In this document: piece by piece, positions 40,107-64,000 of the stretch
How the letters are laid out: each line of letters begins with the position of its first letter
Position numbering within the stretch: the stretch's first letter is position 1
From: Styela clava
Lineage: Eukaryota
Direction: 5' to 3'
Assembly: GCF_964204865.1 (NCBI RefSeq)
Contig: NC_135261.1
Coordinates: 5,518,001 to 5,582,000, forward strand
DNA: 64,000 nt
Notes under the pieces: model-generated
What the model was told of the DNA's origin: nothing
Database searches by the model: none
The model's input: the letters and a program-made list of their open reading frames with translations, nothing else
Position numbers and translations under genes: made by a program

Positions 40107-42204
40107 ATGCCGAAGTGCGTGATAGCAAGTGTTTTAGTCGGAATTGCATTGGTACTGGGTGGTGTCGTTCTTCTTGTTGGTAAATACCCGGAAAAAATTA
40201 TCGATTCGGAAATCAACAAACAATTAGCAATTTCGCTGAATTCACCAGAATTTGATGACTGGATGACCCCGCCCCCACCTATCTACATGCAGTATTGGAT
40301 GTTCAATGTAACGAATCCGGATGCCGTAATTGCAGGACAAAGAGCAAATTTGACACAAATTGGACCTTTTACATATCGATTGTACCAGCCGAGATATAAC
40401 GTCGCTCTATACACGAATAACACTGTCTCCTATCAGTACAATCACACCCTTGTGTTTGTCAAAAATATGTCATGTGCCGACCCCCATAATGTCACAATTA
40501 CGAATCTAAACGTGCCATTACTCACTATTGCTGGAATGCTGAAGAACATGCATATACCTGCTTTTATTTCTAAAAAAATAATAGAAATATTCAAAGACAG
40601 CAAGGTATTTCCGCAACACACAGCCTATGAATTGCTCTTTGGTTACAATGATTCACTGTTAAGCTTCGCCCATATGTTTATTCCTTCATTTCCGGCAAAG
40701 TTTGGACTTTTTTACGGTTTCAATAACACAGACGATGGAGTATATCTTGTGAACAGTGGAAGGAAAGACATATCTCTCGTAAATAAAATGGAAAAGTGGA
40801 ATTTCAAATCCGAATTAGATTATTGGTCCGATAAATATGGCAACATGTTAAACGGTACCGATGGTGTCTTTTTTCATCCTGACATGAAGATAACAGAAAC
40901 GATCTATGCTTATTCAACAGATATTTGTCGTTCTTTACCGTTTAAATATGAAATGAACACAGATGTTCGAAGTATCTCAACATATCGTTATCATACAACT
41001 GCAATGGCATTTGCAAATTCCACTGTTAACCCTGACAATGGAGCGTTTTGCGTTCCGGCTGGAAATTGCATGGGGTCTGGAGTCTTAAATATCAGCGTAT
41101 GTAAGGATAATGCACCAGTCGTTATTTCCTCTCCTCATTTTTACTTGGGTGATCCTAAATATGTTAACGGAGTTATTGGACTTAAACCGAATAAGACTTA
41201 TCATGAAACCTACTTGGATATTGAACCTACTACTGGCACTGTATTAAGAGCAAATAAAAGATTACAGGTATGCTGAATTATGCAATGATTAAGTATACTA
41301 ACGCTTGTTGTGCTGCAGTGCTAATAATTGCGACATTGTCGCTGTATTGACGGGTAAACACTGAACTTTGCCAGTGACGTCAATGATACTGGTTAATTAA
41401 TTGCATTTAGCAAATAGCAGTTTTGATTACTGTTCTGGCATTCTGAAATGATTTGAGTCAGATACGATTGAAAGTAGTTATGATACTACCCAGGTTTCAA
41501 AATTTCCACAAATCACTACCCTATATTGATATACCCTATATTTCGCCTACTTTACATCAAGTTGTGTTCAGGGACTGAAACTTATGAGCAGGGTTTATAT
41601 TCATTTGGCTAACACAGACACTCCCCGAACTCGTAATAAAATTTTGGCCTAACCCTAACCTGCTACACACACCTTGGAGGTACCAAAAAATTTTGAACGC
41701 ATGAGCCATTTGAAAAACAACTGTTTTCGACTTATAGTTGACAAAAATTTGGCTGCCATCTCCTGACCCCAGGTTAATTTTGAAAATATTGATTTGTACA
41801 TATTGACGGTCACGGCCCGTGACCCACAGAAAAACGCTCCATGGGGCCCACAAGAGGGCAGAGGCCTTAGTTTGAGAAGCACTACACCATTTCTCAAGAC
41901 ATTTTTTTCTCTACAGCTCAACATCCAACTTGAAGCTTCAGAATACTCGGATGATCTAAAGAACGTTAGAACAACAACATTTCCGTTTGTGTGGCTGAAC
42001 GAAAGTGTCACAGTTGATGTGGATTCCGCAAATCATCTAAAACAAGTCCTTATGGTGAAGCAAGTCGTGTTATCCACCCCTTATATTCTGTTTGGCATCA
42101 GCGCTCTTATTTTTGTGATTATAATAATCGTAACAATTCACAAAAATAAAAAGAAAGGAACCCCACTTCTCACTAATGTTGATTATGATGAAGATGAGAA
42201 TTAA
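40107..42204 (+). CDS. SCARB2: CD36-family scavenger receptor class B (SCARB2/LIMP-2-like), 2 exons, 482 aa
   Basis: Exons 40107-41267 and 41917-42204 (phase 0). N- and C-terminal TM helices; motifs W..PPPPIYMQYWMFNVTNP, GPFTYR, LLFGY.D, MLNGTDG..F.P, DICRS, SSPHFYLGD, YLDIEPTTG, KRLQ|LN, FPFVWLNE; many N-glycosylation sequons. SCARB2 versus SCARB1/CD36 orthology cannot be resolved by eye. Confidence 0.88.
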
Positions 42205-44885
42205 TTTAATTTGTTAATGTTTCTTTATTTACTCTAATTTGTATAATTATTTTCTGCTTTTTCTCCATTTTGACCCTTACTTTAATAACTAGCTGTTTGC
42301 ATATGGATAGTGTGTCATTAACGAAAAAAAATTTTTCTCTAATTTTAAACATGTACATGTATTATACTCTTGAAACTGGCCCAGTTGTTCCGAATCTTTT
42401 CTATATATTCCTCTCTTCAAGCCTATTTTTGTGCTTTTTTGTTTCCGTTATTTGATCAATCTTTAAAGCAGTTCCCAAACTTTTATTGCAGGGTGGCCCC
42501 AGGTTGCGCGGGCCACAAAATTATTTTTGCATTGTTCGCGGGCCACAATAGTGCCAAGATTTTTGATTACTCTTCGAATGTGACGCGGGCCACAGATAAT
42601 GAAGCGGCGGGCCACATGTGGCCCGCGGGCCTGGGTTTGGACCACCTTGTTTTATTGCTATATGATCTTCTCTTTGTCTATTTTATATCTCTATATTCCT
42701 CCCTCTCTACACATCGTTTGTTCGATATTTAAAGGATTCTCGCTATTGTTATGTGTAATCACACTCTAGATTTGGCACAGTTTGTATAGTTTATAAAATT
42801 ATAACATGTCATTGCATATGTATTACAATTCACAATAATTCTGACCAAACAATATTAGTAAATATACACGGAATGCAGCGTAATGTATCTGTATTTTCTC
42901 CTCAATTACGATATTACCAGAGGACGAATTCCCGGTTTAAAAATGCTGCTATATAGGTAATGGCCAATTTCTTGTTAACCAAGACATATTGGATTTAATA
43001 CTTCTTTGTGCGTTATGTTAAATATCAATCCCCACGCAGAATTTTGTTTCATAAAGAAGCTGTCCTGCCAGTACAAAATTTGTCAAAGCGAAGTTTTGAA
43101 GCCTTAATTTTTTTTTCGGGGGGGGGGGGGGGGGCATTCTGTTCTGCTGCTCTCCTTGCTACTGGAATATAACAAATTCATTGAGGATATATCCAAAAAA
43201 TTGTATCATTTCTTTTCATGAACTGCTTTACATCGGCTCATTCATTAACCTACCTAATTTTCTGAAAAATAACATATGTTTATTAGTTAAATTTAACTGA
43301 TTTTTTGACTGCTTCCTTCTGCTTTGGTGCTGAAAAAAGAAATTTTCAGTCCGGCATTTGGCATCTCAGTAAAATTCTAATAAGAAATAAAAATTCTAAC
43401 GGCATTGACCACGCTGAAGAATGTGTTGTAGGTTATTTTTGCTTGCGAGTAATCATGATTTTTCCGGCGTATCAAACGGATTTGACTCACATGATGTGTC
43501 GGTGCCCTCAGGCATGCACTTGCAACGAAATCCAGACTGGGTAACACTACAGGCCATGTTTTGAAGACGTGTTCCATTATTAGCTCATGCTTGGTTGTGT
43601 CGATGTTTTCGTACCATGTTTGTTATTGGCAAGCCTGCAATAAATCTTTGCAACTCACTGTTTTTCTGTAATAGTAATGAAAAGCTGTTTGGTATGATTT
43701 TTTTGTTTTTGATTTGTTTTTTAGTTATTTAGCTTCATTGATTATTCCTCTTTCTGGGTTTTTTGTCCTATATATGCAATAAAGAAGTTTTCTTTTTCAT
43801 TTGTTAAGAGCATAAGTTTTGGTATATCACTCAGCTACTTTTAAGTCGGACCATTTCTGATATAAACCCCATTGTTTTTTCTGATTCATTTCTTTTTTTT
43901 TGCTTTTGCAGTTTTTCATGATGTAGTTATTGAGAAAATTTATGACTTCATCGTATTATACTGTTTGTAGCTTGTATATTTAAAAAGTGAAAAATATATT
44001 TTATGTTCGTTGTTTCACTGCGGACTGGCGAACTAAATAATATATAGGGTGTCCAAGTCCATTTACAATTTTGTTACGAAGTCAGTTCTCAATATATCTC
44101 AACCAGGTTTGTTGTTTTTAATCAGTATTTGTTTAAGTATTTTTACTTCATTTCAATTGGGCCAAAACAATATACGGTATAGATAAATTCCCTTCGCAAT
44201 TTCAAAATATTTTAAGATTTCATGGACAACCTATTTTCTCAGAATTATATCAGTGTGAGCAATAGATGTCTATGTTGAGCAAATGTGTTACCAAATCTCT
44301 GCAGACCTAGCCAATCTACACAGATCACTGGGGATAAGTTCTTGGTCACGGACCACAAAAAATTATCAGATAAACAAAATTTTCACTAATCCCAAATTTC
44401 GAATCTGGTTCACGATGTAGAGATGTCAAGAATAATTTATATGTTTGGAACTAGGGCTTGGCATTCCGAATCGAATATTCAAATTGAATAGTAAATTAGT
44501 TGAATCGGTTAAGAGCAAAATTTCGAATCTATGCCGTTTTGTTTTTTTCTGCCATTGGTATTCGATACGATTCTGCATTTACCAGGTATTCGAAAATGCC
44601 CAGACCTAGTTTGAACACATTGGACATTGTGCAATTTCCATGACAGTTTAGACTAAAATGTTCCATTATATGCTTTTACTATGAAAATGGCTCATCTGTA
44701 TTTTATTGATTGATAAATTGTTTTTGTTGAAAATATGAAAAAAAAATGGAAAGGTTTTGTTTTGTGAATTTGTTATGTGATCAAAGAAATCAGAATTTCA
44801 TGCTGAACGTATATAATTGAACAAGACAGCAATGCTCAATTCCAGAGGCGCTAAGGTTGCACATTGGTACTAGCTAAAGTGACTG

Positions 44886-45105
44886 AGGGGTTGTTAGCAT
44901 AGAAGTCATATTGGGGGTGTCACAATAGGGCTGACGAAATGCGGTTGTTGTGTGTCGAAATGGGAGTGACGAAATAGGGTCGTCGAGTCAAGTTAGGGGT
45001 AGCGAATTACGGTCGGTGCGTGTAAGATTGGGGGTGACAAAATACGGTCGTTGCGTGGTGTCAGGTTAGGGGTGACGAAATACGGTCGAGACGTGTCAGA
45101 ATGTA
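44886..45105 (+). repeat. Left terminal array of ~33-bp repeats (GGGGTGACGAAATACGGTCGTTGCGTGTCAG..)
   Basis: About five tandem units; reverse complement of 62540-62702 and 62925-63058. Confidence 0.85.
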
Positions 45106-45851
45106 GATGGTAAAATATGACAGAACGTGTCAAATTACCGTTAATCTGACAGTAGGGTGCCGGTACGCAATCAGTGACAGCGAGCTGGATGAAATCAAGG
45201 ATCACTAAAATTTGAAAATGAAATTCGCCGAGTATTTATATGTTTATTGTAGCTATTGAGCCTCTGTTAATTACTATCAACCTAAATAAAGATGCGAGGG
45301 TATACCGGTATAGTGACGCCTGGAAATATAGAATTGAATAGAAATTATTTATGAAATCGGCGATGACAAACCTTGAAAATATATTGGAAGTTATGATTCC
45401 TGAAATGGTGCATACACCTGGTGTTTTATTGCATGAATGAGGAAACGATCACGGACCAAATTTTCGGAAAAGAGCACGCCGTATTGTAAAAACAGTCAAC
45501 TCTCAAAGGAACATTCTTCTCTCGGAACTTCGCGCCCTAGATGTAACATTCAATGAAATTCAAAAAGTAAAAAACGGAGGCACAGTTCGGCAACGTATGA
45601 AATACATCTGCATATGTATTATCTTGTAGTACAACGTTGCCTGAAATACGTTTGTGTTCGTCGGGAGCTTTAAAACAATATATGAAAAACGAATAACAGA
45701 ATATTTTACAGTTGAATTTGTTTCAAAAAAATTTCCATGTCCTCAAATAGTGTCAAACAATTCTTTTCCTATTTCTAATATTTTATGTGACCTATTTATG
45801 CATAGAAATGACATGAAAAAACATGTTTTATGTCATCGTGCAAAGTGATTA

Positions 45852-45965
45852 TGATTTAATTTAAATTTGACGTACGACTGGGATCACTCTGCATAGAGAG
45901 ACTAAAATTAACGAAATCTCTCTATGCAGAGGGATCGAGTCGTATGCCAAATTTAAATTAAATCA
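45852..45965. repeat. Hairpin, ~49-bp stem with ~16-nt loop
   Basis: TGATTTAATTTAAATTTGACGTACGACT..CTCTGCATAGAGAGA versus TCTCTCTATGCAGAG..AGTCGTATGCCAAATTTAAATTAAATCA. Confidence 0.85.
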
Positions 45966-48900
45966 AAATCAGCTAATTAAATTTAACTTAACATTGTAAA
46001 TAATTCTTTAAAGTTTTTTTCATTTTTTCGATTATTAATTTGAATAACATTTTTAATGTGAAGGTATGTTTGATCAATGACATTAAACAACATGATGCGC
46101 AACTCCGGCATTTTTGGCCGAAGATCGTATCTGATAGCACGCTCCAATGCACATACTTGACGAGACGAAAACGAGCGGATGTGTGCTGCTTTCAAGGCAT
46201 AGCACAAATGGTGTTCGTGCCTGCTTTGACAGTTGTTGTCGATTTTAATGATATTTTGGAAAGTTGAGGTGAAAAGAAATTGAAAAAAGGTAAGGTAAAT
46301 ACTATTGTTGTATATCACACCCGGGCATCGCACTGTTAAGTACATGTGGGAAAGCCAGCTTTTGTCAAATACTACAAAGTTATTAATTCAGTACGGTACG
46401 TAGTTGCCCATTTGCCGAAATTGCATATTTACTCACCCCTTATGGTTTCAAATTGTTCATGCACCTCCATTTAGATTTTTTTTTAATCAGTGAGGATATA
46501 TACTCATTGCTGTAACATACTATTGCTCATTCACTTTTATTTGCGTATCGAATCAAAGGGTTAACAAGTTCACCTAACATTCACTCATACCGGACGATAT
46601 TGTATAGTCTGATCTCTCAAGTATTTGGAGCCACGAATGCTTGTAATTTTCTGACTAAACCCTTTTATTAGTTGGTTTATATACCAAATTCAGTAAAACA
46701 TTTTTTACATAAAACATGAGATATTGGATTCATTAGCTTTTCCATTCTAAATCATATAGACTGCTTTATTTATTCTTAACGAAAATTAATAAATCTCCTC
46801 TCTTTCTTCAGATGTAAAAGTTGTGGACGAACCTGTCTAAGCATTGTGAGACTCCTGCAGCACAAGAAGCAATAGCAAAAATACTAAGTATATCAATCAA
46901 GAAATTAAGCCGACATAAAGCAAAACTTTCAACTATTCGTCTAACCTCAATTTCCTATTATTTATTCACAGGACAACTGTAGCAGAGGGGAGATATCAGA
47001 AGTCTGGCGACATATCATTGACAGTGTGATTCCAAGAAATATAATCAGAGTACTCCATAAATGTTTGCAATAGAAGAACAACCTATGGAGTCATGCAAAG
47101 ACATCTGACCCTCCGGCAGAGTTGTGGATGGCCCCCATATCCTGCAGGGCTTGAGGAAAATAACTAAAAATTCCAAAGCGTAAGATTCCATAAACGGTCT
47201 TATTTGTAAAATGGCACAAAACACGCCAGACATACTTAAACAGCTTTGGAAAATGAGGATTACGGGTCACTCACTACACCTGTGTTATATTTGGTTCATC
47301 AACTTTTGGTAGTACTATAGAAGAAATTCAGGAAAGGGTATAATCATGATTCACGATAAAATACAAACCTTTTAAAGTAAAATTGATTATTCACACAGAA
47401 AACAATTTACTGAAAGTAGTTTTGGAAAATTATTTTTTTTTGTTCACATTTTGACCCAATAAAGAATATACATCAAGCTAGCAAAAGAATACTTGTATAA
47501 AACACTTGAGTGAATAAATTAAACGCAAGTACATGAAGAAGGTGGCATTTTCGAAGAAAATGGGAGTTGCAATATTTCTGCATTTCACGAAATTCTGAAG
47601 CAAAGAAAAATTCTGTTTAATTTGTCATATTTCCATCAGTACAATGAAAAAACACAATAAGCTCAGCAGTCAATATGACAAATTAGAAGAGCAACTTCGA
47701 ACAGAAAATTTCCATGTGTTTGTATATTAATATAATTATACAACGACTTAGTTACTAAAAATCAATATCAATATTAATTCAAGCAATCCTATGCCACGCA
47801 ATGTGGCGCGAAATGTCTTGTCGAAAAAATCTGTCATTTGTTTTTTTACTGATCTATACATGAAATGATAAAAGTAACTTTTTTTGCATTACTGGAATTA
47901 TTTAAACATTCGCAAAGATCCAGATTAACCCATGATCATGTGACCTCGTGAGTTAGAGTTGGTACTATAAAATCATTTCAGCCTGACCTTAGTATGCTGG
48001 TGACACATAAAAGATGCCAAACGTCAGGACAAATGTAATTAAAAAAACATTGAGTTTATACTGTAGTATTTTTGTCAATTTTAGGTCCATATATTTAGAT
48101 TAAGTGTATGTAATATTCTTTCCTTATCCAAAGCTTGTTTAAAAATTTTGATGGTTGTACATGGAATTTTATGATTTTTTGTAAAAAATACAGTAACTTG
48201 CAATAATAGTGGAATGCAAATATTAATATGTAATTGCATTCGAAATTAAAGAAAATAATAAAAATCCAACTGTTTAGTTGCATCACAATATATGTCACAA
48301 ACTGAAACAATCTTTCAACTATACATTATCAAAAACTGTTTGCGGCCCTTTTTACAATTTTCAAAATGCAATGCAGCTCTCGAAAACCCATGAGTTTGAC
48401 ACCACTGATCTAGACTAGACGAATAAATTTGTCTTCTAAAATCGGAGGAAGGCAAAACATATAGGTAGTTCCCATTCACACAAGTCTTTCAAGAGGACTT
48501 GCTCGAGCCAAACTAAATGAGCATCGTCAGTTGATCGGTAAGGCTGAAAGTTGATTTAGCCCTGCAACCTCCTGCATCGAAAATAATATTAATTAGTGAG
48601 CTATGAGCTAAATTTAGACACAAACCTATCTACGGGGCATTATGTACCAGAAATGTTACCTACGATTAACTGAATATGTAATATGTCTAATAAATTCACC
48701 TACTAAAGCAAGTTCGATAGGTGCAAACTTTGTGTTATGGAATTGTACCACAGCACCGAAAAAGAAGTACAAACAGTTTTGCTGTTTTGTATGACACCCT
48801 CTTTAAATGAAATTTCAATGTTTAAGCGCAAACATTAAAATTACGAACTCTGAACTTTGTCATTATCTGCAAAATGTTCCACACAAATCTTTACGCTATC

Positions 48901-51434
48901 GCGTTTGTAATCTTCTCTGATAAAAAAAAACGTTTATGATGTCCAGAATTACTCTTCGCAGCTTGTCTGCAATTCCAGCTTTCCAAGTGAGCAAAACTTC
49001 TTAGATATAAGGATTATTTTTTTTCGTTACAGGCGCAAATAGGAAGGTACTACACGTAAAGAAAACGCCGAGTAGCAAAAGCGAGCGGAAAACGGTCGCG
49101 AAAGGCGACGAGAAATATGTGCATTGGAGCGTATCATGAAATACAATCTTTCGCCTGTAGCCTTATGGAGTGACGTCAGAGTTGCCTATCATGTTGTTTA
49201 ATGTCATTGGTTTGATATATTATTACGTTTTGCTCTTCAAGTCTTGAACATCTCGAAATAGTAACAGATTTCTCACATTCAAAGTACAGAGTTTATTTGT
49301 TTTGTCAAACAGAAAACAATAACACGACAAAATATAATTGTATAAGCAACAAATTCTCGGTATAGACTGTATAACAACTGGTATCAATACTATCATGTCG
49401 ATATCGAGATCAGTTACCAGTACCACTCAATATTTATAACGTGAATAACAAGAGCTTTAAATGTGATAAGACATCTAGGATGTGATATTGTATGTTTGTC
49501 TGAGACCATCAATAACTTTCAATGGAATAATAATTTAGTTGACAAGCGTTTGGGATGCTCTAAGCATTAACTAAATATACCTAGATATAAATTCAGACAA
49601 ATTATTTGCTTGATCAATTATGATATTAACGAATTTGACATTTTTGATTAATGACTAAAATAGGAAGAGAAGGTTTTCATGTGAGTGTGTGGCATTGGTT
49701 TCTTTAAAATATGTAAATGGTGAATGACTCAAAGTAACGGTTATATAGGGGCATTGAAACGTCACTGCAATAGTCAAGTTGTTCGAGTGTTAAAGTTCGG
49801 ACCAACAAAGCAGGTATAAAAAAGCAATCATATCAAAATTGAGCTTAAATGTTTTCGTATGAATAAGGTCTACAAGCATCATGTAAAATATCAGGAAGAA
49901 TACTCATGTTAGAATGTAATTTACACTGTTTTTTCATTATTTTAGTTTAAGAACCGAATTCTATGAGAATGTCTTTAACTACGTGATAACTTGATGTCGG
50001 ACTCAGACTCGAATCGAAGCTTGGATGATCTCGACTTGATTCGTGGTTTGATAATTACCAAACAGTGAACTGCGCGGTATGGGTGAGATATCATACTGAT
50101 ACTTGGTGAAACGCATGTCTGTGACGTGTGTGCATAGTGACACGAGGGGTAAAGACTGCCAGAGAAATTCCAAGGGTATGTCATTTTTTGCGTCCGGAAA
50201 GAATAATTTCAATAAAAAGTGACTAAGAATCAACAAAATATTAAATGATGTTGGGTTAAAGGACATATAGGGTGTAAGGACATATAGGTTTAAAATTGCA
50301 GAGGGAATTTACCAATGCCATTTAGAGATTTTGTCTTCGCAGATGTATAAAATACTTGAACAATTACTGATTAACAAACAACAAACCAGGTTAAGATATA
50401 TTAAGAACTGACTTCATAACAAAATTGCAATGGACACCCTGTATTGTTTCAATAGTTATGAGAAAAGCAAAAAATATTGTTGCGTTAAAGTGTCATTTTT
50501 GTATTATGTGTACCTACTCAATTACAAACATGAAGTGAAGTTCTGTAGAGTGTAGACCATGTCAACAGACGTCGCGTAAGATCAATTCCGATTATAATTA
50601 CCCAAAAGAATGAAGCTCCGTAAACGTCACTAATGCCCTATTATGACTCCTCGAACATGTTTAGTCGAGACTGGGCTTTTAACAAAACACAAATAGACTA
50701 ACAACAAATAAATAGTTGTCTTGATAAAGTTTCCATGGAATGTGGTTTAATCAGACAATCTTCTCAGTCACATCCCGAATAAATCTACGTTCTTTATTTT
50801 CAGTAGTAAACAACAATCATTGGTCACTGATTAGAGTGAGATAGAGATTACAGTATCTTTGTTTCTTTATTAAAAATGACAGCTTCCTCCCCTTGTGTTT
50901 CTCTTTGATACTGCTCATTTTTTTCTCTTTTGACCTTAAAAAAATATTTGGCGCGCGTGCCGCATTTCGGCTCAGGGCGTGGTAGTGTGAGGTCGTTTCT
51001 GCGCTGGTCTGAGCTAGGTAAATTCACAGTTTAAGGCAGGGAAGGTCGAGATATAACTAGGTCAACTAATTATTCCCATTCTTCATGCATATATAAGCTA
51101 TAACTTGAATTGTATAAATAATAATCTATTCCGATACAATTGGGTAGCGCCTTTTTTCAGCCATATGCAGAATTTGAGTGTTATATGACGAATATAGATT
51201 TCAGCATTGAGTTCTTGTTTCATTTCTTATATACCTTTCGAGTGTATTTATTTACGTGTTTTGCAACGTTTTTCTTTATGCATCAAGTCTTGTTTTATGA
51301 TAATTTTTTTTGTGAGTTGTAATCCGCGACAACGTGCTGTTTATAATTTTTCTACTTTGCACAAGAACTTTGTATCATCGCTAAAAAGTATCATCGCTAA
51401 AAAGTAAGCCATAACTATAATTTTCAAATTTCAG

Positions 51435-52240
51435 GCTTAAAAAAAAAGAAGAAAAATCTACCAATATAATATGATATTGGCATGATTGATGGTGGAGTGA
51501 CGGACTGATTGATGTAGGCAGAAAGGTAACTGATCTAAAGTAGTTTATCAGTTTTATCATAACTTGATTATAAGGTAAAGGCCTTTTAATTTTAATCTAA
51601 TTACAGGGCTTTGCGAAGAAGGAAGATATTGTTACTGCTGGTGGTCGAGTGGCGATTGGTCGATGTAAATGGAAAGGTAAGTAGTTCTAAGAATGTTACA
51701 AAATCCAAAGCTTTTATCACAACTTCATTATAGAGCAAAGGTTTTATAATTTTTACCTTAATTACAGGTTTTTGCGAAGAAGGAAGATATTGTTACTGCT
51801 AGAGGACTAGTGGCGATCGGTCGATGTAAATGGAAAGGTAGGTATGTTACAAAATTTAAGGTTTTTATCACAACTTGATTATAGAGCGAAGGTTTTATAA
51901 TTTCCACTTTAATTACAGGTTTTTCTGACGCTATGAAGATATTGTCGATGTAAATAGAAAGTTAGGTGGTTGGTCTAAACATGTTGCAAAATCTAAGGTT
52001 TTTATCACAACATTTTATAATTCCCAATTCAATTACAGGTAGAAGATATTGTTACTGCTGGTGACAAGGTGGCAATTGACCGATGTAAATGGACAGGTGG
52101 GTCTGCTTCATTTTTTATGAACAATATACTTTACTCAAAAGGAAAAGGCGTATACGTAAAACATAATTTCCTAAATTGTTGGTTCGTGTTGTTTGTACAG
52201 TGTAAACATTCGAATATTGAAAGCGCTTTTTTACAATAAA
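51435..52240 (+). repeat. Tandem exon-intron repeat array (putative spliced ncRNA)
   Basis: Units TTACAG|exon|GTA with exons 51435-51525, 51607-51676, 51768-51837, 51919-51960 and 52039 onward; AATAAA at 52235. Confidence 0.7.
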
Positions 52241-52927: not shown

Positions 52928-53038
52928 GGCGCTCCCGAAGTATGTGCACCAAGATGGCGCACAACTGATAACCCTAACCTGGTACACATATAATGTTCAG
53001 GTTGTGCGCCATCTTGGTGCACATACTTCGGGAGCACC
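52928..53038. mobile_element. Short palindromic Merlin-like MITE
   Basis: TIR GGCGCTCCCGAAGTATGTGCACCAAGATGGCGCACAAC; degenerate TSD TTCTAAAC/TGCTAAGC. Confidence 0.7.
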
Positions 53039-55012
53039 TGCTAAGCAGGCATTAAATAATAAAGCCGGGAATACCTGATAACTTAATAATCGAATCTTGA
53101 TTACTAGGAAGATATTTAAATTTCCTATTTAAACGTGATTGTATGCAAATTTTTATTTTAATGAGTCCTCAAGGCATATAAATTACCGAGAACATAGAAT
53201 CCATCACTCAGTCAGTTCGCTAAGTCGTCACTCACAAATAAGAATCGTGTGTCATCAATAACTCACTGGGAAGAAAACAGCCGTGTGTCCGTCCCTCATG
53301 ACAGCGTACTTCGTCAAATAGCTACAAATATGTAAGTAGCTGTTATTCTTGTGAAAAAATCTGCATTTAACTTATCATTCAAATTCTGACTGGAAAAGCG
53401 AATCAAGGCGATCTCAAAATTACAAATCTGGATAAAGTAAGTAATTGTTCCATTTCTTCTTATAAAGGCGTGAAATATAGTAAAAAAAATTATTCAACCA
53501 ATTACTTTATCGATATCTTTAATATCCAACTTCAACTGCAGTTTAGAATTTTAGTATATTCGCCTAGTTATAATTTGTTATCCCCAAATAGTTTTTCAAA
53601 TTGGGTATAAGGGGCACCTTTATCGGCACCATTACATACCTTTTAAGGCAGGGGTTGGCAACCTACAGTAATATAATCCGGCCTGCAAATGGGATAAAAA
53701 TAGGTTTTTTGAGGTGCAATGCAATTAGGAAATAAATCTATATTCTATTCGATAGATGTATCACTGCTTGATTTTTATTATAAAGTATCATCCGTTCGGT
53801 TTTCAACTTTCTGAAAATATGTGCGTCTTGCCAATGACTTGCGACCCCTGTGTCCTTTGTCCCACGAGCGACAAAAGGTTGCCGACCACTGCTTTAAGGT
53901 TATAGAATCAATTTGCGGAGGTATTTCGAATGCTGTAAATTTTCGATGTTATCGAATCGCAAGTGATGCTTTTTAAATTCAATCCCAAGCATATGGGTGT
54001 TTTACTCGTGATTTTAATTGCAGATTATGGAATTGGGGGTAGCAATATAGTCCAGAAGTTATATTTTAATTAAAATCAGGGCGGTTTGTGAATTATTTTT
54101 TCCAACGCTGTTAAACTAGTTTTATATATTTCAGGTTCGAACTGGGCGGAAGCAAAAGACGATTAATCTCACGTGAAGCAGACGTAGATTGACAGTTTTT
54201 TCTGGATATAGTGTTTTAGAATTGTACCAATCGCATTTTCCATTTTATTTTAATAAGTCCTGTATCCGGGTTTTAGAGGTCAGCGCTTCCTTAGCCCCCC
54301 CTTTCCAGATCGTGGGTCATGATGGGTATTGATTGGTTAGGGACACTGAGATTTCTTGCTGCCATCTAATAACCAATTATGCTCGTAGACTGCTATCATA
54401 GATATAAACGCGAGATTTATTCGAATCTTGAAAGTTAGTAAGGTTCCTGTACTTTCACACAAATTCCGTCGTTCTGTGTCTAGAATCTTCAGTGTTTGTT
54501 GAAGTTTTATTCCTTTTTGTTATTTAATGGATATAAATAAATATAACCGACGAGAAAATATCTCCATGCTTGCTCTGAGGCTGGGATTGGTTTGTCAGGT
54601 TTCGGATAGTTGTTCGGGATAAACTAGCAATCATCAGAATGTACAAAAGGGGGTGTGCATCATGCGTATGACGTCACTAGGTTGTGACGTCACCCTAGCG
54701 ATCAGCGGTATTTTGGGGCAGGCCGGCGGTGGATCCGAGCCGAAACGACGCGATTTAATTTTATGTGCGGCCGACCATTGGCCGTAGATAAATCGAGTAT
54801 ATTTTCCGAAATTTATCCATAATCATGCCTGATCATGCATGATCCGAATATAAATTTCAAAAATCTCCATTTTCCAAGGTCTGACCCTTCGATTTTCTCC
54901 ATTTTCGTTTATTTAGGGATTTCTATCTTCTTATAAGTCGGAGCTTCCTTCATACTTTATATATCTGCGTAATCCAATTAATGACGACACGAAATTGATA
55001 CGGGACAGTAAG

Positions 55013-55084
55013 TTCGCGGGATTCAAACTTTGGTCACCATGAACAAACTAAAGGAATATCAACCGCCTTTACCAACTAGGCCAA
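55013..55084 (-). other. tRNA-like Pol III head, mirror copy
   Basis: First 21 nt identical to 55212-55232, and AAAGTTTGAATCCCGCGAA is shared. Confidence 0.55.
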
Positions 55085-55211
55085 GGAGGGACGTGAGAGC
55101 GAGATCTGAGTTTTAATATTTATCAATTATCATAAATGAGTTTATAATTTACAAGTCCGTTGAGATGATATATAAATATTAGACCTTAAAGCTTTGTTCG
55201 TAAGTTCTTAA

Positions 55212-55283
55212 TTGGCCTAGTTGGTAAAGGCGCTGGGTAGACCATAAATTTGTTCACGGTGACTAAAGTTTGAATCCCGCGAA
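55212..55283 (+). other. tRNA-like Pol III head (A box TGGCCTAGTTGG, B-box-like AGTTTGAATCCC)
   Basis: TTGGCCTAGTTGGTAAAGGCG resembles the D arm of Ser/Leu tRNAs. Acceptor and anticodon stems are poor, so this is not called a tRNA gene. Confidence 0.55.
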
Positions 55284-56997
55284 TGTAACATCAAAAATTA
55301 ACGAAGGAGAAACTCGAGCTGTGGACTACAAAAACCCCAAAATAAGAGAATATGGAGGAAATCGAAGGGTCAGACCTTAGAAAATAGAAAATTTTGAAAT
55401 TTTCATTCGGATCATGTATGATCAAGCATGGGCGCGTAAAAATTTCAGTAATTGTACTCGATTTATCTATGGCCTACGATCGGCCAAAGATAAAAAAAAT
55501 CGCGTCGTTTCGGCCCGTAACCGGCGCCCCATAAAATCGCGGCTAGCCAGTATGACGTCATAACCTTGTGACGACTTAGTGTAAAATCCGCAGAAACCAG
55601 TCAAAATGACGTTTTGAGACACTTCTTACACCTATGCTCCAACTCCCATTTCCTATTAGCCTTTAACAAAACCCAGTCGCCGACAACCAATAAGCATGGA
55701 GAACGAATATTGCTTCAATAATTTTATTATTCTTCAAGCAAGAGAATAAACAAAAATGTACATCTAGTCTTCGGGGAAAAATAAGAGAGAGGTGGATAAA
55801 ATGAAGATATTAATGGGAACGCATTGTTTAAAAGGAATATGGAATATTAGCTCACCTATATTACCAAAACTCTCTAAACGGAATAACTTGTGAACTGGTA
55901 ATGAACTATTGGATTTTAAGACTTCGCCCTACAATGACAAATGCGCATTAATTAACACTTTTCAAGTACACAATACTGCTAATTAAATGAAACAACATCC
56001 AGACTTCACAGCTATAAAAGACTATAAAACAATATTATCAAATATTCTAGCTGAAACAATGCGCAATTATAAAAATACCTAATTTGAACAGACAGATGAT
56101 TTGTGAGATCCGTTGTCGCCTCAATCCGCTTGTTCCGGAATCCGGACAGAATCTGCATGAAAAAATAAAGTTAGATATCGGTCTTCAATAGGAATAGTTG
56201 CCGATCGTAAAGAGCAGCGGCGATCGCGCACAAGGGCGGCGTAGACAATTTTTTATATTGCGTTGAGCTTATTTAAAATAACAATTTTTGGATATATGAA
56301 TCCTGACCCCTACCTGATGACGTCATCCAAAAATTACGTCACTGCGACGTCACAATAACGAAATACAGCTTGCCAAAGTATAGCGACGGTCACCCGTAAT
56401 GGCGCCTACGAATATGTCAACAAACTCAATACGTCAGCGACAAATTCTAAAGAGGGGCGCGGCTTAAAATGTTTGAGAACCACTGCTATAGAGTTTCGTT
56501 TGAAGAATATTATATGCTTGGGTAACAATAACTATCGATTTGCAATTCAATTTCTCTAATCCATCTTGTGGATTAGTCATGAAATAAAAACTGGGGTTCT
56601 CAGTCTATAGGATAAAATTAGCGCCGGGGGGTGAACCGGGTAAATTAGCAATCAAGGAATTTTAACGTCAAAAAAAATTTGATTCAACCCACCAAAAAAA
56701 GCAAAACGAGTAGCGAGAGGAAGCAGCGCTGGCAAACAACTTATTCTGACAATCGTATATATATATTTGAGTTTTATACGCGCTATCATCAAGTATTTAT
56801 TTGGTAATAAAATCTGTCACCGCGGGCATTTCCGAGCTTTCTCTCACTACAGAGGTAGACCGTGTTTGTTGGTTACAAACTAGCGTATTATATAAAGTGT
56901 ATTATATACAGCCATAACCATATGCCCGGATATGACTCTGTTATTGCAACACAGGAAATAATAATGACACATCAAAACACATAAGCATACTAGCATG

Positions 56998-57789: not shown

Positions 57790-58045
57790 ATCTTTAAATA
57801 CTCCGATGTAGGTTTGAATTATGTGGGGTTAAATTATGTGGAAGAGGATCGTTGGACTCCTGGTTTCTCTCTTGGACTCTTGGAGGTGATTCACGTACAA
57901 CTGTTTCGTAATACCTCCGCCATTAAGCTCATGCATCCAAGACTAAGCCCGATAGGCGATATGGACTGATCACCGGACGAGAAGCCGTGGTGTCCACGTA
58001 ATCAAGCCGTCTGACGGATTTCCTCTCCACTGTGATAAATATGGA
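57790..58045 (+). mobile_element. Degenerate SINE-like repeat
   Basis: B-box-like GTAGGTTTGAAT and a 3' block ACCGGACGAGAAGCCGTGG...AAGCCGTC shared with ~25595-25660 and ~8150-8255. Confidence 0.4.
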
Positions 58046-61000
58046 AAGACAAAAATATCTACACTTACTTCAACAAACTCTCGATTCGTGAAATTCGCTT
58101 TCACCTTATTCGCTTATTCTCGTTTTCAGGACATAAACTGCATGATAAAATACAAGTTAAAACTATGGAATCCGAAATATTCCAGTCCAATTAAAAACGC
58201 CTTTATGATTTCAGCAAAAGCGAAATGACCTCCACCAATGTTATTTTGCATTCATTTTTATTTCACTCTCAACACATAGATGTCTATGCCGGTACAGATA
58301 GAATGTTTAGGCTTGGAATAAATGATTAATTAATTAATTAATTTCAGTGTGAATTGAATTCAATTTATGAAACACGGCCACTTGCAACGAGTAAGAGTAA
58401 TTTTAGAGCAGTGTTCCAACCTTTATCGTTAAAACTTCTCTTCGCCTTTTTTGGAACTTTTATTTTTTGACTTGGTGGATCATGCGCACTCACACTTTTG
58501 TACAATTTAAGTGTGTTATAATTATCCATTATAGTAATATCAATAATGAAGAAATGCAGAATAGAAATAATAATAAAGAAATGCAGAGTCTATGATTAAA
58601 AAGTTAACCTACCTTGATTATGTTGAGACACGCCGGAGAAGCCACACGCCGGAGAAGCCGTACCTTGCTCCACATGTTTTCCACAAACATTGGATACTTT
58701 CAAGCACTGATTGACAATTTCTGTAGCAAAATAAAACCACTGTAGAAAACACTGTACGTTGAAAATTTTTGAAGGTAATTTAGATTTTCTTTAATTAAAT
58801 TGTTTAATCCATACTTGTTTTTGTCTCAGACGCAGCGGAAATACTGCATTAATTTCATAAACAGTTTTCAGCTTTCATTAAATACATTTAGGACTGATTG
58901 CACACTACGATTTCGGTAACACAGACATCGGATTCTGATTATGCTCGTAAGTATTATTAAAAAAAATGAATTTTGAAGTTTATTTTAAAAATAAATCATG
59001 ATTCGAATTGCAAAAAAATATAATTACTTACATATTTATTTTTATTTGAGACGAATCGGAAAGTCACTCCTCTTGCTTCCCAAATGAAAACGTTTCCTTT
59101 TTCGTTTGAAGAAATTTAATCACCTATTTAAAATTTCTGAAATATAACAAAAAGAAGATACTAACAAGGAAATGAACATGAACAAAAAACAACATAATAG
59201 CATAACGACATGTACAGTTCGCGTCCAATAGTATTGAAACCAACAACAAGTAATTACCCCGTCTCTATCAGTTGACTGTTGATAAAAACTCACTTGTACT
59301 TACCATGTCCAGCTATGTCCGAAGATTCGTCTCCTATCCACTTTTATCTGCACGTGAAAACGAAAATTGGAAGGGTAGGCCAGTAGTGGAAAACTACGCA
59401 ATTTTAATTGCTACACGAGACAAAAAATAGGACCTGGCATACTTCTTCTTCTTACAAAGGGTGAATTACTTATTGCTTAAGACAGATTTTCATCTTACTT
59501 ATTTTATTGCCTTCATTAACAAAAACACTCGCAATGGTTGACGGAAATCTTACAAGGGTATTGGTTTTACAAAATACGAAAGTTACAAAGAATGAAACGA
59601 CTTTAACCCAGACTGCAGATGCGCCGTCATCAATATCAATTTAATACTTCATACCTAACTGGATAAATGTTCATTCAACCGCATTTCCTCCAGCAGATCC
59701 CGATGCCAACAATTCCAGAATTTGTGATCCAATTCCACCCCAGATCAATAATTTTAGGCCTAATATTAGTCTAACTGCATTAGTAAACATAAACTGTAAA
59801 AACATATAAATTGCCTGCAAAGAAACGAGAAAAGCTGTAAATGAAGCCAAATCATTTATTAATTTCCGTTAGAATAAATGAATTTGTCAAACAGCCGAAA
59901 CGACGAATAATTGAAAGACTATTCAAAATTGGAAGACTATTCAAAATGTAAATCTGAATGCACAATGCAATAAATATACGTTTCTCAGCGCAAGAGCCCA
60001 GTAGTATAAAACCTCCATATGTAATCGGATTCATGTTAAGAGTAATATAAGAAGCCAATACAATGACACTGACGGAATCTTTAACACTTGGTTTGACCAA
60101 GATCGTATACTATATTGCCATACGGTTGTGCACTTATAAATAAATTAACAGTTACCTTATTAATCCTTGATCGCCTCTCTTCAACTAAACTTCTGTGAGT
60201 CTTCGAGTCAGGAATTTGGCAACAATAATCGCTTTAATACTATGTTATGGCCTAACTGTATTATTATTTAGTTTATCTTTAGCTATTAGTCCATGTATCT
60301 TTCGTTTTCATTCCACCTCGACAGTCCCACTTGGTAGACAATTGAATTGTAACAAATTTTCAATTGTTACTTTTCAAAAATTATCGAATATGCAGAATTA
60401 ATTTTTGATTGTATACTTTAACCTTCAAGGGAACACAGGTATTTTTCCACCTGCATAAAATAATGATTTCATATTCTTAAAACAATGAGATCATCGATAT
60501 TCCCACGAAATCTATGCTATTCCAATTTATTTTGCTATATATTTACACTACATTTGACCTTAATTACTGCGCCGATGCTATAAACCGGAAATATTAATAT
60601 TGCTCAACCAAAATTTCTCCTATCAAAAACGAAACAAACTAGTTTCTGATTGGTTAAAAATAAACCTTTCCGAAAAAGTAATGAATAAAGATAGAAAATT
60701 TATCCACGAAACGGCAAAATTCCAAAAGCCTTCAAATAACCCAACTTAACCCAAAATAGCACAGACAGAAAAGAGAAAAAAAGTGGGAAAGGTAGGAAAT
60801 ATAGGGGGCAACCCCCGCAACTATCCCATTCAAGGATTCCCAATAGAACACATATACCTTCTGATTAATATATATATATATGCTTTATATCGGAATACAG
60901 ATTATAGAAGTCTAATATATAACTAAAGTCGTAAGTAGTCGACGGGACTATCGGATAAGTATGCAGATAGAAGACCATTCATAGCAGCAACACAACTTTC

Positions 61001-62479
61001 TACGTTACAGAATCAACAATTGTAGATTAAACATAGGTTTAACTGCATTCATATAACGAAAAGATATGGAAGAAGAGAACGCTACTTGTGCCCACGTAAA
61101 TTCTTGACATGACAAAAAAGATTTGGATATAAACTACAAAAAAACCGTTGAAATAATTTGAAAAATATTGAGCAAATAATATTACCTGTACTATATCCAT
61201 CCCAACACAACCGCATCTCTGTTGAGTTTTTAATTCATCAATGATGTAGATCTTATTTATGAAATGGTCCAAGCATCATTGCACAGCCATATCTTACCAG
61301 GGGTCTTTGATTCAACACAAGTATACTCTCAATTCAAACTAGTGTTATATTATGGCCTAACTGCAATCCATAATTCATTGAATATATGTTTAACCGTAGT
61401 TTTTGTTCCGCTCAAGCAGTTTCCGATGTCAACATTCGCATCTTGTTTACGTTCAGTCAGTTTGCATAAACAAGATCTGAAATATGTAACATGGCTAAGA
61501 TGCACTATATTGGTTGAATAAAAGCTAACACAAGCTAAGAGCAGAAATAGGGCAATTCGTATATATGGAATATATCCAAAGCGTAAATATGAATACGGTT
61601 TTAGGTTTCTTACTTGTTCTAACTTGAACATTTCATTGTTCTCGTTCGCCTCCATTTGTTTACGCCGTCGTCTTTGATTCAATATCTACACACTAGGAAT
61701 CATTTAGTATTACGCTATGGGCTAACTAACTGAAAGAATGAAATTATCTCTAATAATCATTGCCGATTTAGATTATCTCACCAATTTCAGATCTCAATTC
61801 CACTTTGTAGACATTTGAATCAATAATTGTAGGCCAAAGCTTAGTTTAACTACATTAGTACAACTATGAAAAATGGCTGAAGATACGCGTTGGATTATGA
61901 AAAAAATACCGACACAAGTATGCACATAAACCATTAAACCGAAAAAATTCGCAAACATGAAATCAGTGCTCACCTGACGGCGTCAACTTTGAAAAGACCG
62001 CCTGAGCGCAAACAAATTTTGACGTGGCAAGAAAAAAGTTTGATTATAATAAAGAAACAAAGAGGGTGGAGGAGACCGCAAAATGAAGATGCTTTTTCAT
62101 TCGTTATTAGGAATCACATGTCTAGGTGACGTAAGAAAATAGCAAAACAACAAAAAAATGATGGAACATGCTGTTTGTCGCATTAACCTTTTACCACTAC
62201 AGCCATATAACAATCTAAATACATCTTATTCTAGAGTCTAGCTAGACAATATTTAATATGCTACATTATTGAGAAAAATAATAATAAGCAGAAAGATATT
62301 CTACCGACGTCATGATGAGGACAGCAGGAAAAATCACGCTGACCAAACATACAGCGATAATAACAAAATCAGACGATTTTTCTTCATAGGATGCTTATTC
62401 AATACTTGTCGCATCGAACAAGACCCTATGCAAGCATCCACAGATACCCCACGATATGCTATGAGTTACTCTCAAAACG

Positions 62480-63058
62480 TTTAAAACGTGCTGCTACTAT
62501 TCTGACATGCCGAAATCAAATATTTAAAGTTTCTTCGCAGCGACCGTATTTCGTCACCCCTAACCTGACACCACGCAACGACCGTATTTCGTCACCCCAA
62601 ATCTGACATGCACCGACCGTGTTTCGCCACCCCTAACTTGACTCGACGACCCTATTTCGTCACTCCCATTTTGACACACAACGACCGCATTTCGTTACCC
62701 CTATACTTGCTTTAAATGTATTAGACGTCCAATATCGCTGTATTAAAAAATAAAAAGATAATTGTGCTAAATTAAGTTTAAATACTGAACTACCCTTGAC
62801 TATGATACATTTATATTTTTCATAAAATTACCGGAATATACGCTATGTTTGGTATTATATATGTCCGGTTCAAAACGTGCTGCTACTATTCTGACATGCC
62901 GAAATCAAATCTTTGGTTTTTTCGCAGCGACCGTATTTCGTCACCTCCAATCTGACACGCATCAACCGTATACCGTCACCCCCAATTTGATACGCAACGA
63001 CCGCATTTCGTCATCCCTATTTTGACACCCTCAATATGACTTTTGTGCTACCACCCCT
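62480..63058 (-). repeat. Right terminal array (two tandem blocks), inverted relative to 44886-45105
   Basis: CGACCGTATTTCGTCACCCCTAACCTGACACCACGCAACGACCGTATTT is the exact reverse complement of the left array. Ends CAATATGACTTTTGTGCTACCACCCCT. Confidence 0.85.
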
Positions 63059-64000
63059 GTAGCTTATTTCCAGCAGCCTGGTTGTACAGCGGGCGCTCCA
63101 GAAGTGTGTGTACCAATATGAAGGTAACTAATTTGTCTACTTTACATCAAGTTGTGTAAACATGTGGGTTATTCACTTGGCTAACACAGACAGACCCCGA
63201 ACTCATAATAGAATTAAAAAGGGAAATCGGTATAAAATTATGGCTTAACCTTTATTATTGCATTGGATTTATTGTTGCAGTAACCAACCTTGTGAATGTT
63301 TGCCTTTCACATTCAATAGATAAGGTTTTGTATGAAAGGTTTGCTAGCTTCAGGTGCACAATGCTTATAATATGTCCCATGTGTGAAAGTGCTCTGTAAA
63401 ATTGATATTTATCATGGCCAAGTATGAATGTGTATATTATTTTTATTGAGTTATTAATGATTAAAATGAAGCATTTTGTCAGTCTGACATAGCCCAAGAT
63501 TATTTACTTTTGATATTCCGAACTTTTGCATGAAACATACCGTAAGTTTATTTCGACTCCATAATCAGCATAATAGACGATAAAATAATTGATACAAAGT
63601 AAATAAAACTGATTAGAGATAAAAATCTCCTCATAGTGTAGTATGGGTAAGAATAAGAAGGTCTAAAACATACAGATTTCGGACTATGTTACGTTTACAT
63701 ATGTGACTACTGTGCAACAATTGAATTAATAAAGATAATTTTATCACAGTACTGAATAACAATTCCCACTAAATGGACAAGATTCGTTCTGATCCGTTAC
63801 CAAGTCTCCAAACCATTAATAAACTAGTCCTAGCTGTTCTAAACGTTGCGCACAAAGCTCATTTTGTGTCTCCAATCAAGTCTCCACAATTATATATTTT
63901 TGCTTCCATTCTAGCCATAATCAAATTATTTCCAAACCATAAACACTACTATGATATACCCACTGTAATACTCTGTACAAAAACAAATAATTGATTGATT

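Follow-up and report, generated by a model that had tools for sequence, protein, structure and literature searches.

What could a palindrome of transfer RNA (tRNA)-like promoters do at the point on which two spliced transcripts converge? The question is raised by a 64,000-nucleotide (nt) stretch of Styela clava DNA (NCBI RefSeq assembly GCF_964204865.1, contig NC_135261.1, positions 5,518,001 to 5,582,000 of the forward strand), referred to as the window, in whose numbering all coordinates without a contig or locus name are given. The original prediction, made from the letters of the window, placed at 54120-56160 an old 2-kb palindrome with back-to-back heads for RNA polymerase III (Pol III) and mirror-image terminal exons. 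The palindrome is real and practically spacer-less, but spans about 0.9 kb. It is favoured here, tentatively and at a little under an even chance, that its arms are paired landing pads for TFIIIC and TFIIIB, which would stop and insulate two convergent RNA polymerase II (Pol II) transcripts.

Self-comparison of the window by BLAST yields a single inverted repeat at 54672-55573, identical at 657 of 954 positions (69%), and the motif TGACGTCA at 54669 pushes its left limit to about 54667. When the two arms are aligned, the score is 247; 200 shuffles and 200 background segments average 21, and 0/200 reach the value of the arms. The predicted extent of 2 kb does not hold: 54120-54660 and 55585-56160 score 22 against each other, which is the mean of the shuffles (116 of 200 score equally or higher), and the family profiles of the two splice acceptors, and likewise those of the two poly(A) regions, show no cross-recognition. 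Inside the palindrome the prediction was accurate. All seven blocks listed as near-identical are located on both arms, colinear in mirror order; the arm alignment carries the symmetry to the centre near 55147, and the A and B boxes of both arms are directed outward.

54667 to 55573, no strand: central palindrome, two arms of about 430-470 bp, 69% identical, no real spacer; also found in other copies of the family
55212 (+) and 55064 (-): A-box 21-mer, mirror block
55265 (+) and 55013 (-): B block, mirror block
55359 (+) and 54876 (-): AAATCGAAGGG block, mirror block
55406 (+) and 54838 (-): GATCATG block, mirror block
55455 (+) and 54785 (-): TACTCG block, mirror block
55497 (+) and 54739 (-): AAATCGCG block, mirror block
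54669, 54685 and 55553: positions of the paired motif TGACGTCA

Each arm has the order of a type-2 Pol III promoter. From the centre outward follow the TATA-like motif ATAAATATTAGAACTT, the A box, a B-box-like stretch, GACGTCA, AAATCGAAGGG and a T-run, and past the T-run lie GATCATGCATGATC repeats, an inverted GATAAAT pair, GGCC pairs, a GC-rich stretch and TGACGTCA.

55114 to 55123, minus strand: left arm, TATA-like motif upstream of the A box at a distance of 40 nt
55072 to 55083, minus strand: left arm, A box
55020 to 55028, minus strand: left arm, B-box-like GTTTGAATC, T replacing the invariant C
54859 to 54863, minus strand: left arm, predicted Pol III terminator, the first T-run past the A box
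55172 to 55181, plus strand: right arm, TATA-like motif upstream of the A box at a distance of 41 nt
55213 to 55224, plus strand: right arm, A box
55268 to 55276, plus strand: right arm, B-box-like GTTTGAATC
55392 to 55395, plus strand: right arm, predicted Pol III terminator, the first T-run past the A box
55349 to 55496, plus strand: most conserved body block of the right arm, with short self-palindromic motifs (mirror 54758-54905); it is through this part that the most distant loci are detected

The TATA-like motif lies 40-42 nt before the A box in 28 of the 29 units scored (13 loci), while the sequence of the spacer varies freely; this distance falls within the TFIIIB footprint given for yeast in the accessible text of PMC5052057. 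The spacing from A to B box is tRNA-like, 44-63 nt in 29/29 units (search window 40-75). The genome contains 20 instances of an exact 17-mer of the upstream motif, every one inside a family locus (control 1), and none was found 5' of the Lys and Cys tRNA genes examined. The A-box 20-mer has 47 genome matches with up to two mismatches, 45 of which lie in family loci; the other two show the A-box stretch alone. The arms are therefore not copies of an abundant free short interspersed element (SINE), the alternative that the original prediction had set against itself. The family head profile weakly detects genuine tRNA genes, for Tyr and for Lys, over the stretch from A to B box (E 0.005-0.016, 5-kb set), and ARAGORN finds no tRNA gene in the window or in 17 family or control regions. 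Canonical GTTCRA B boxes are kept in the distant loci L083, L090, L092 and L093 and in an array at L094; canonical-B-box loci lie at C19:10.90, 11.12, 14.72, 14.94 and 15.385 Mb, the last of these being L094. There a 116-bp tandem array, on both strands and within the hinge of a distant copy (L094:5390-6570, C19:15.385-15.386 Mb), repeats the bare unit of upstream motif, A box and B box; the B box of these units is canonical, its distance from the A box is that of a tRNA, and a T-run lies between the two boxes.

The stretch between the A box and the conserved T-run is almost free of T-runs on the sense strand, with 7 runs of four T (T4) versus 193 of four A (A4), compared to 70 versus 95 beyond it; these counts cover 47 of 52 arms, of which two were set aside as misaligned and three for lack of an aligned A box. 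Among 15 arms, one or two per lineage, the values are 2 T4 and 74 A4 before the T-run and 28 and 30 after it (P=1e-10), and 13 of the 15 have T4 at the conserved site. A nearly T-free stretch of about 200 nt ending in a T-run is the signature of a Pol III transcription unit, and each arm is predicted to give an RNA of about 200-240 nt.

The arms may accordingly be genes for a new trans-acting Pol III RNA of that length, with selection on the product instead of the bound complex. The complete promoter anatomy, the T-free body with its terminator in 13 of 15 lineage arms and the conserved blocks within the predicted transcript all speak for such a gene. However, Rfam has no family within 54.1-56.2 kb, and RNAalifold returns 0 pairs in the head (28 sequences) and in the outer body block (29 sequences), the two parts covered by alignment folding. 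This absence of a consensus structure counts against the structured non-coding RNA that the original prediction had suggested. In addition, the best conserved block lies mostly beyond the predicted terminator, in L090, L092 and the L094 array T-runs follow the A box after as little as 25-44 nt, and an RNA gene needs no back-to-back pairing at a hinge. The RNA-product explanation is thus considered unlikely.

The surroundings of the palindrome appear to be transcribed. RNA evidence consists of assembled contigs from runs X1-X5 and X10-X12, whose RNA nature is guessed, and, because the contigs were mapped at 85% likeness, their signal is that of the family and not of the window copy alone. The predicted acceptors at 54134 (AG 54133-4, plus strand) and 56153 (CT 56153-4, minus strand) are both present and supported by RNA contigs, an AATAAA is present at 54536 on the plus and at 55723 on the minus strand, and contigs from both sides agree with two spliced transcripts converging on the palindrome. 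Depth is 0-11 over 54472-55615 and tens to hundreds on the exons.

50780 to 51017, plus strand: left unit, conserved promoter region and first exon, donor GT at 51018; first exon predicted from the letters, not from reads
51436 to 52100, plus strand: left unit, short tandemly repeated exons, joints unseen in the listed reads; splice dinucleotides retained in 14-16 of 15-18 copies
54135 to 54560, plus strand: left unit, terminal exon, acceptor AG 54133-4, AATAAA 54536, putative 3' end
55700 to 56152, minus strand: right unit, terminal exon, acceptor 56153-4, AATAAA 55723-8, putative 3' end
57950 to 61850, minus strand: right unit, internal exons, alternatively spliced, duplicated modules, no coding frame found
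61974 to 62230, minus strand: right unit, conserved predicted promoter region and first exon, shared motif at 62047

Contigs from three runs align from exactly 54135, preceded by 34-82 unaligned letters, and the AG of this exon is retained in 17 of 18 copies. On the other side, CT..AC joints connect 56152 with 58613 (runs X2, X4) and with 59660 (X1), further joints run 59136-59294, 59136-59660 and 59347-59655, and the 56153-4 acceptor is retained in 15 of 17 copies. One contig of run X1, at a depth of 514, joins 61828 back to 60213 (60213-61828), which can be a circular RNA or an artefact of the duplicated exon modules. No conserved open frame was found in the flanking units, the longest ATG frame reaching 74 amino acids (aa) among 256 candidate exon chains and 21 aa among 32, and only 8 of 49 exon deletions are multiples of three. 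Two candidates for an own protein gene were rejected: a 326-aa open reading frame (ORF) found in two copies was assigned to a Helitron family distinct from this one, and a 1397-aa ORF to a nested Gypsy element.

The two units are related to each other. The profile of the 54134 exon scores a median of 18 bits on a hidden mirror exon (shuffles -5), and the exons at 56153, 58100 and 53385 score 12-69 bits across each other. Locus L083 carries exons of the right type on either side, equally far out (5159/5157), and L212 has left-type exons, inverted, within its right half. Judged by these similarities, the two halves are ancient mirror homologues. The promoters share the motif TTTGTTTCTTTATTA, at 50858 on the left and 62047 on the right; whole-promoter homology between the units was rejected, this single 15-nt motif being all that is common (profile cross-score at most 5.5 bits). 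The claim of mirror-image terminal exons holds for the family but not for the pair named, 54134 and 56153. Their equal distances from the centre are an accident of a deletion in the window copy, since the true mirror of the 54134 exon sits in a segment that is lost here and kept in other copies.

An RNA reading through the hinge is predicted to fold into a single hairpin (-434 kcal/mol, z -28). The locus might therefore be a source of hairpin double-stranded RNA that feeds small interfering RNA (siRNA) or PIWI-interacting RNA (piRNA) production, an idea to which the long hairpin and some contigs across the right arm lend themselves. We regard it as very improbable; contig depth is lowest (0-11) precisely over the palindrome, although poly(A)-type runs would miss processed small RNA.

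Searches of the 377-Mb own genome with each arm gave 66 and 78 matches, at 35 candidate places each. In a DNA run the depth is about 7,000-8,000 at the palindrome, whereas single contigs have a few hundred, which indicates roughly 20-25 close copies. Homology between copies spans about 50.0 to 62.5 kb of the window, far past the palindrome. After merging of the search results by hand, at least 61 distinct partial or whole loci were counted, a lower bound in which very distant copies are undercounted. Seventeen of the 61, mostly the oldest, lie in C19:9.3-15.9 Mb (5% of the genome), with P=4e-9 on the assumption of independent loci, which these are not. An arm-profile scan of 56 loci (matches of at least 120 nt) found both strands in 35, of which 33 are back to back, one strand in 7 and none in 14. 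Of the scanned loci, 36 had been picked via the palindrome and 9 for the absence of a BLAST match, all 9 of which fall among the 14. Loci reached via the left flanking unit carry arm traces at the expected place in 8 of 10 cases, 5 of them with matches of at least 120 nt. In four distant loci the palindrome is nearly all or all that stays recognisable, and both findings speak for constraint. Beyond this genome, four metagenome and nine viral pattern matches, from collections poor in animal genomes, include none with a B box or body block and are read as chance. The palindrome is thus not a single-locus oddity, and the refuting case named in the original prediction, that no other copy is palindromic, fails; the divergence between its arms came from a master copy and was then multiplied.

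A miniature inverted-repeat transposable element (MITE) or foldback identity of the palindrome itself was rejected. The copies share no end: arm similarity fades while the flanks stay homologous for kilobases, there are no discrete ends with a target duplication, and the palindrome was not seen to move without its flanks.

The original prediction took the discrete blocks shared by the old arms as a mark of constraint. In the window pair, identical runs of 12 or more number 6 against 2.6 expected (P=0.015), but the number of runs is unremarkable (P=0.26), so that block-wise identity goes only moderately beyond uniformity there. The two arms of the window copy also agree more at columns conserved in distant loci, as defined from eight distant arms only (132/154 versus 141/199 elsewhere, P=0.001), and the uniform arm identity that would have refuted the original prediction is thus not seen. 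Arm identity thus follows deep conservation; young copies, in contrast, decay nearly uniformly, with private changes at 104 of 2698 motif columns and 165 of 3536 others (P=0.13 with CpG excluded, P=0.05 with CpG), and in moderately old copies the palindrome is conserved no better than its flanks. Deeply conserved columns together with drift in young copies mean that selection acted over deep time or on source copies.

These patterns bear on a neutral origin. In a tRNA-derived SINE, a head that resembles a tRNA and contains A and B boxes is joined to a body of unrelated sequence. The arms share this plan, and it is conceivable that they are relics of an extinct SINE that lay beside the breakpoint of an inverted duplication and was carried along neutrally by segmental duplication and transposon capture. 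The tRNA-like head on an A-rich, T-free body, which is SINE anatomy, the near-neutral decay of young copies, the decay of the B box at a CpG and the existence of copies without a palindrome would all suit such a history. Unlike SINEs, however, the arms have no solo copies (45/47 A-box and 20/20 upstream-motif matches are in family loci), no tail or target duplication of their own and a conserved upstream motif, held at fixed spacing despite a changing spacer, and they are paired at a hinge. Moreover, the palindrome outlives its flanks in distant loci, and the promoter unit alone is tandemly arrayed. The SINE-relic explanation is already weakened and is considered quite unlikely.

The arms of a locus have not evolved independently. 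In a tree of 52 arms, the left and right arms of the main subfamily separate, with 2-3 changes against about 17 when shuffled, although the deepest split is weakly supported. The separate clades foreseen by the original prediction therefore exist in this subfamily, but five distant loci have sister arms: L092 (100/100), L094 (100/100), L090 (93/91), L083 (92/85) and L093 (89/71). The symmetry has thus been restored several times, probably by gene conversion between the arms. Mammalian Y-chromosome palindromes are kept alike by arm-to-arm gene conversion, and there too the arms of one locus cluster in a tree, as in the distant loci here; the present palindromes are far smaller, more diverged and non-coding, and conversion seems to have been episodic.

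Spread of the young copies is explained by a carrier. Young copies, that of the window included, sit inside a Foldback/Mutator-like element, here called T.

44885 to 49978, plus strand: left end of T, tip GAGAGGGG, 35-nt tandem repeats, unique segment
46075 to 49209: separate high-copy insertion interrupting the left end of T
62479 to 63062, plus strand: right end of T, 35-nt tandem repeats, ending in ...CCCCTGTAG, tip ending GTAG

The 35-nt tandem units of the two ends are 93% complementary over 164 nt. Exact 8-bp target duplications flank 2 of 3 end pairs tested (L148 and C2:19.007-19.055 Mb), the latter pair enclosing a 48-kb copy with palindrome; none was found for the window's own pair. 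T ends flank 9 of 10 young copies and none of 20 old ones, for some of which only a few kb of flank are covered. T is also found without cargo, and several copies look like cargo between two T ends. A search directed at Mutator-like elements (MULEs) gave 82 genome matches, with no T ends within 1.5 kb of the 30 examined. Foldback-type Mutators, namely Aedes Muta1 (PMC5225508) and a Drosophila composite transposable element between foldback elements (PMC6431247), resemble T, and not the palindrome, in what their accessible texts describe: ends that are long and tandemly repeated inside, target duplications of 8 bp and a cargo that varies. Unlike these, no transposase was found with the T ends, and the cargo is older than its capture and exceeds 12 kb. 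A second long inverted-repeat pair around one copy is a separate element that received T. For old copies no shared terminus, inverted pair or target duplication was found, and local duplication on C19 is the simplest reading of their multiplication.

Two other elements were observed beside T. The insertion at 46075-49209 has a DNA depth about 100 times that of the family and no long ORF in the window copy. A non-autonomous element of 3.3-3.6 kb (L110:3499-4025, L111:7101-7650; L149, L163, L185) has inverted ends of about 540 bp that start with TAGAGG and that we take to resemble Academ ends; T with cargo is nested inside one of its copies.

A further possibility is that a large element, mobile or amplifying and so far unrecognised, uses the palindrome as a cis-element, such as an origin, a resolution or a recombination site, and regenerates one arm from the other when it copies itself. 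Sister arms in the five distant loci, halves exchanged or swapped between loci (L083, L212), the many short self-palindromic motifs and the at least 61 dispersed loci are what such an element might leave behind. We nevertheless judge it decidedly improbable. No enzyme gene of its own was found, the long ORFs in copies being pieces of nested Gypsy, Helitron or MULE elements, and the old copies lack shared termini and target duplications; T accounts for the young copies, and ordinary gene conversion for the sister arms. Of the three roles first suggested, a TFIIIC/Pol III element fits best, and a replication or recombination centre is unsupported beyond the homogenisation of the arms.

Further observations concern neighbouring and other regions. 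A CD36/SCARB-like gene with very long exons lies upstream of the element at 40065-42204. MITE-like abundant insertions occur at 52928-53038, 53560-53900, 56241-56490 and 63092-63250, and the hairpin at 52928 predates the spread of the old family copies, since it is common to them. A large Helitron-like family with Rep/PIF1 helicase and GIY-YIG (C18:14.465-14.486 Mb, L128-L130; C10:21.32 Mb; C6:18.90-18.94 Mb) has a separate OTU protease ORF and a family of 316-340-aa ORFs without known domain (P0001), with 120 genome matches, many intact, in 15-kb tandem units and with 1.2-kb tandem repeats; two palindrome-family copies contain an inserted piece of it. More than 30 tRNA-Lys(TTT) genes form a tandem cluster at C2:15.88-15.99 Mb (L291, L297). 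Small contigs (C54, C98, C125, C131, C138, C154, C191, C216, C276, C296, C318, C340 and C361; L294-L296) carry tRNA genes in dense arrays that encode the CCA ends and include an Ile-TAT gene, and that recur every 44-46 kb within a contig; these look like concatemers of a phage-like or extrachromosomal genome of about 45 kb.

According to the explanation favoured here, the palindrome would consist of back-to-back tRNA-like type-2 Pol III cassettes at the hinge of an ancient inverted duplication of about 12 kb, whose halves are spliced, apparently non-coding units transcribed towards the hinge. It builds on a cassette anatomy that is fixed across all lineages, on contigs that place spliced RNA of the family on either side with little over the hinge, and on homologous halves whose read-through RNA is predicted to form one long hairpin. 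TFIIIC and TFIIIB would bind the arms, and Pol III, moving outward to make its RNA of about 200-240 nt, would collide head-on with Pol II running past its poly(A) site. The barrier would avert fold-back or antisense double-stranded RNA and hence silencing of the family. Arm-to-arm gene conversion would repeatedly restore the symmetry, as the tree suggests, and, as seen for young copies, the Foldback/Mutator-like element has captured and dispersed the unit. The majority of young copies, probably with that of the window among them, are likely passengers in decay whose B box is weakened. A role at the level of DNA is favoured by the absence of a consensus fold and by the tandem array of the bare motif, A and B unit.

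Counterparts are known for parts of this arrangement, as far as the accessible texts of the cited papers go. In Saccharomyces cerevisiae, TFIIIB and TFIIIC are roadblocks for Pol II (PMC5052057). As in the proposal, Pol III machinery in the path of Pol II ends non-coding transcripts there, and the upstream-motif spacing found here fits the TFIIIB footprint. The yeast roadblocks are, in contrast, ordinary tRNA genes met mostly from upstream, whereas the present case is a dedicated back-to-back pair without a tRNA fold, between homologous spliced units, in an animal. Inverted repeats with B boxes that are bound by TFIIIC act as boundaries in fission yeast (PMC7474672). These IR-L and IR-R repeats resemble the proposed TFIIIC-bound boundary but flank a 20-kb domain, have B boxes only and are single-copy, while the repeats here abut, comprise upstream motif, A box, B box and terminator, and form a dispersed family. 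The CeRep3 repeats of Caenorhabditis elegans, which are extra-TFIIIC sites, likewise have A and B boxes, are tRNA-like without being tRNAs and cluster in particular chromosome regions; the accessible text describes no palindromic pairing or convergent long non-coding RNAs (lncRNAs), and TFIIIC binding was measured there, whereas it is predicted from sequence here (PMC6950938). A trypanosome study (PMC5359979) confirms that transcription ends between convergent units but, in its accessible text, not that tRNA genes lie there, and it is not counted as a precedent.

Several points weigh against a Pol III barrier. The B box is GTTTGA in both arms of the main subfamily, the window copy included, and lacks the canonical C, a base-specific TFIIIC contact whose change to G lowers the affinity of yeast TFIIIC 370-fold; the accessible text states no value for C to T (PMC11811891). 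The yeast roadblock was mapped upstream of tRNA genes, and a head-on peak of Pol II was not observed at their 3' end (PMC5052057), while here each Pol II reaches the 3' end of the cassette first. Strand and ends of the RNA contigs are not resolved, their direction being read from splice polarity; each unit has its own AATAAA, which alone explains the drop in coverage, and one low-depth contig in each of two runs spans the right arm (55300-55699). The body motifs beyond the predicted terminator are unaccounted for, and the T-free body favours the RNA-product explanation, since it hints at the importance of a fixed RNA length. Finally, young copies drift in nearly neutral decay, and in the 14 of 56 loci without an arm match the flanks persist without the palindrome.

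Each component of the system has a known counterpart, and the combination appears new: we found no description of it among titles and abstract openings, most subscription papers and supplements lying outside that scope. It is possible, if doubtful, that the family represents a previously undescribed class of non-coding genes, namely giant palindromes that insulate themselves, with two homologous spliced lncRNA units running towards a dedicated back-to-back Pol III cassette. Such units would be kept symmetric by arm conversion, arrayed along C19:9.3-15.9 Mb (17 loci) and later spread genome-wide by a transposon, and might serve as a small-RNA precursor or a chromosome-organising system with TFIIIC at its centre. 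If the landing-pad explanation is true, the family would be a natural, many-times-replicated test of the termination and insulation of Pol II by Pol III machinery in an animal, since within the same flanking genes it offers loci whose B boxes are canonical or decayed, loci with tandem-amplified cassettes and loci whose hinge is deleted. It would also be a repeat family with its own insulator, which avoids double-stranded RNA from its mirror-image halves, and T would be a transposon that mobilises a whole two-gene non-coding unit of more than 12 kb.

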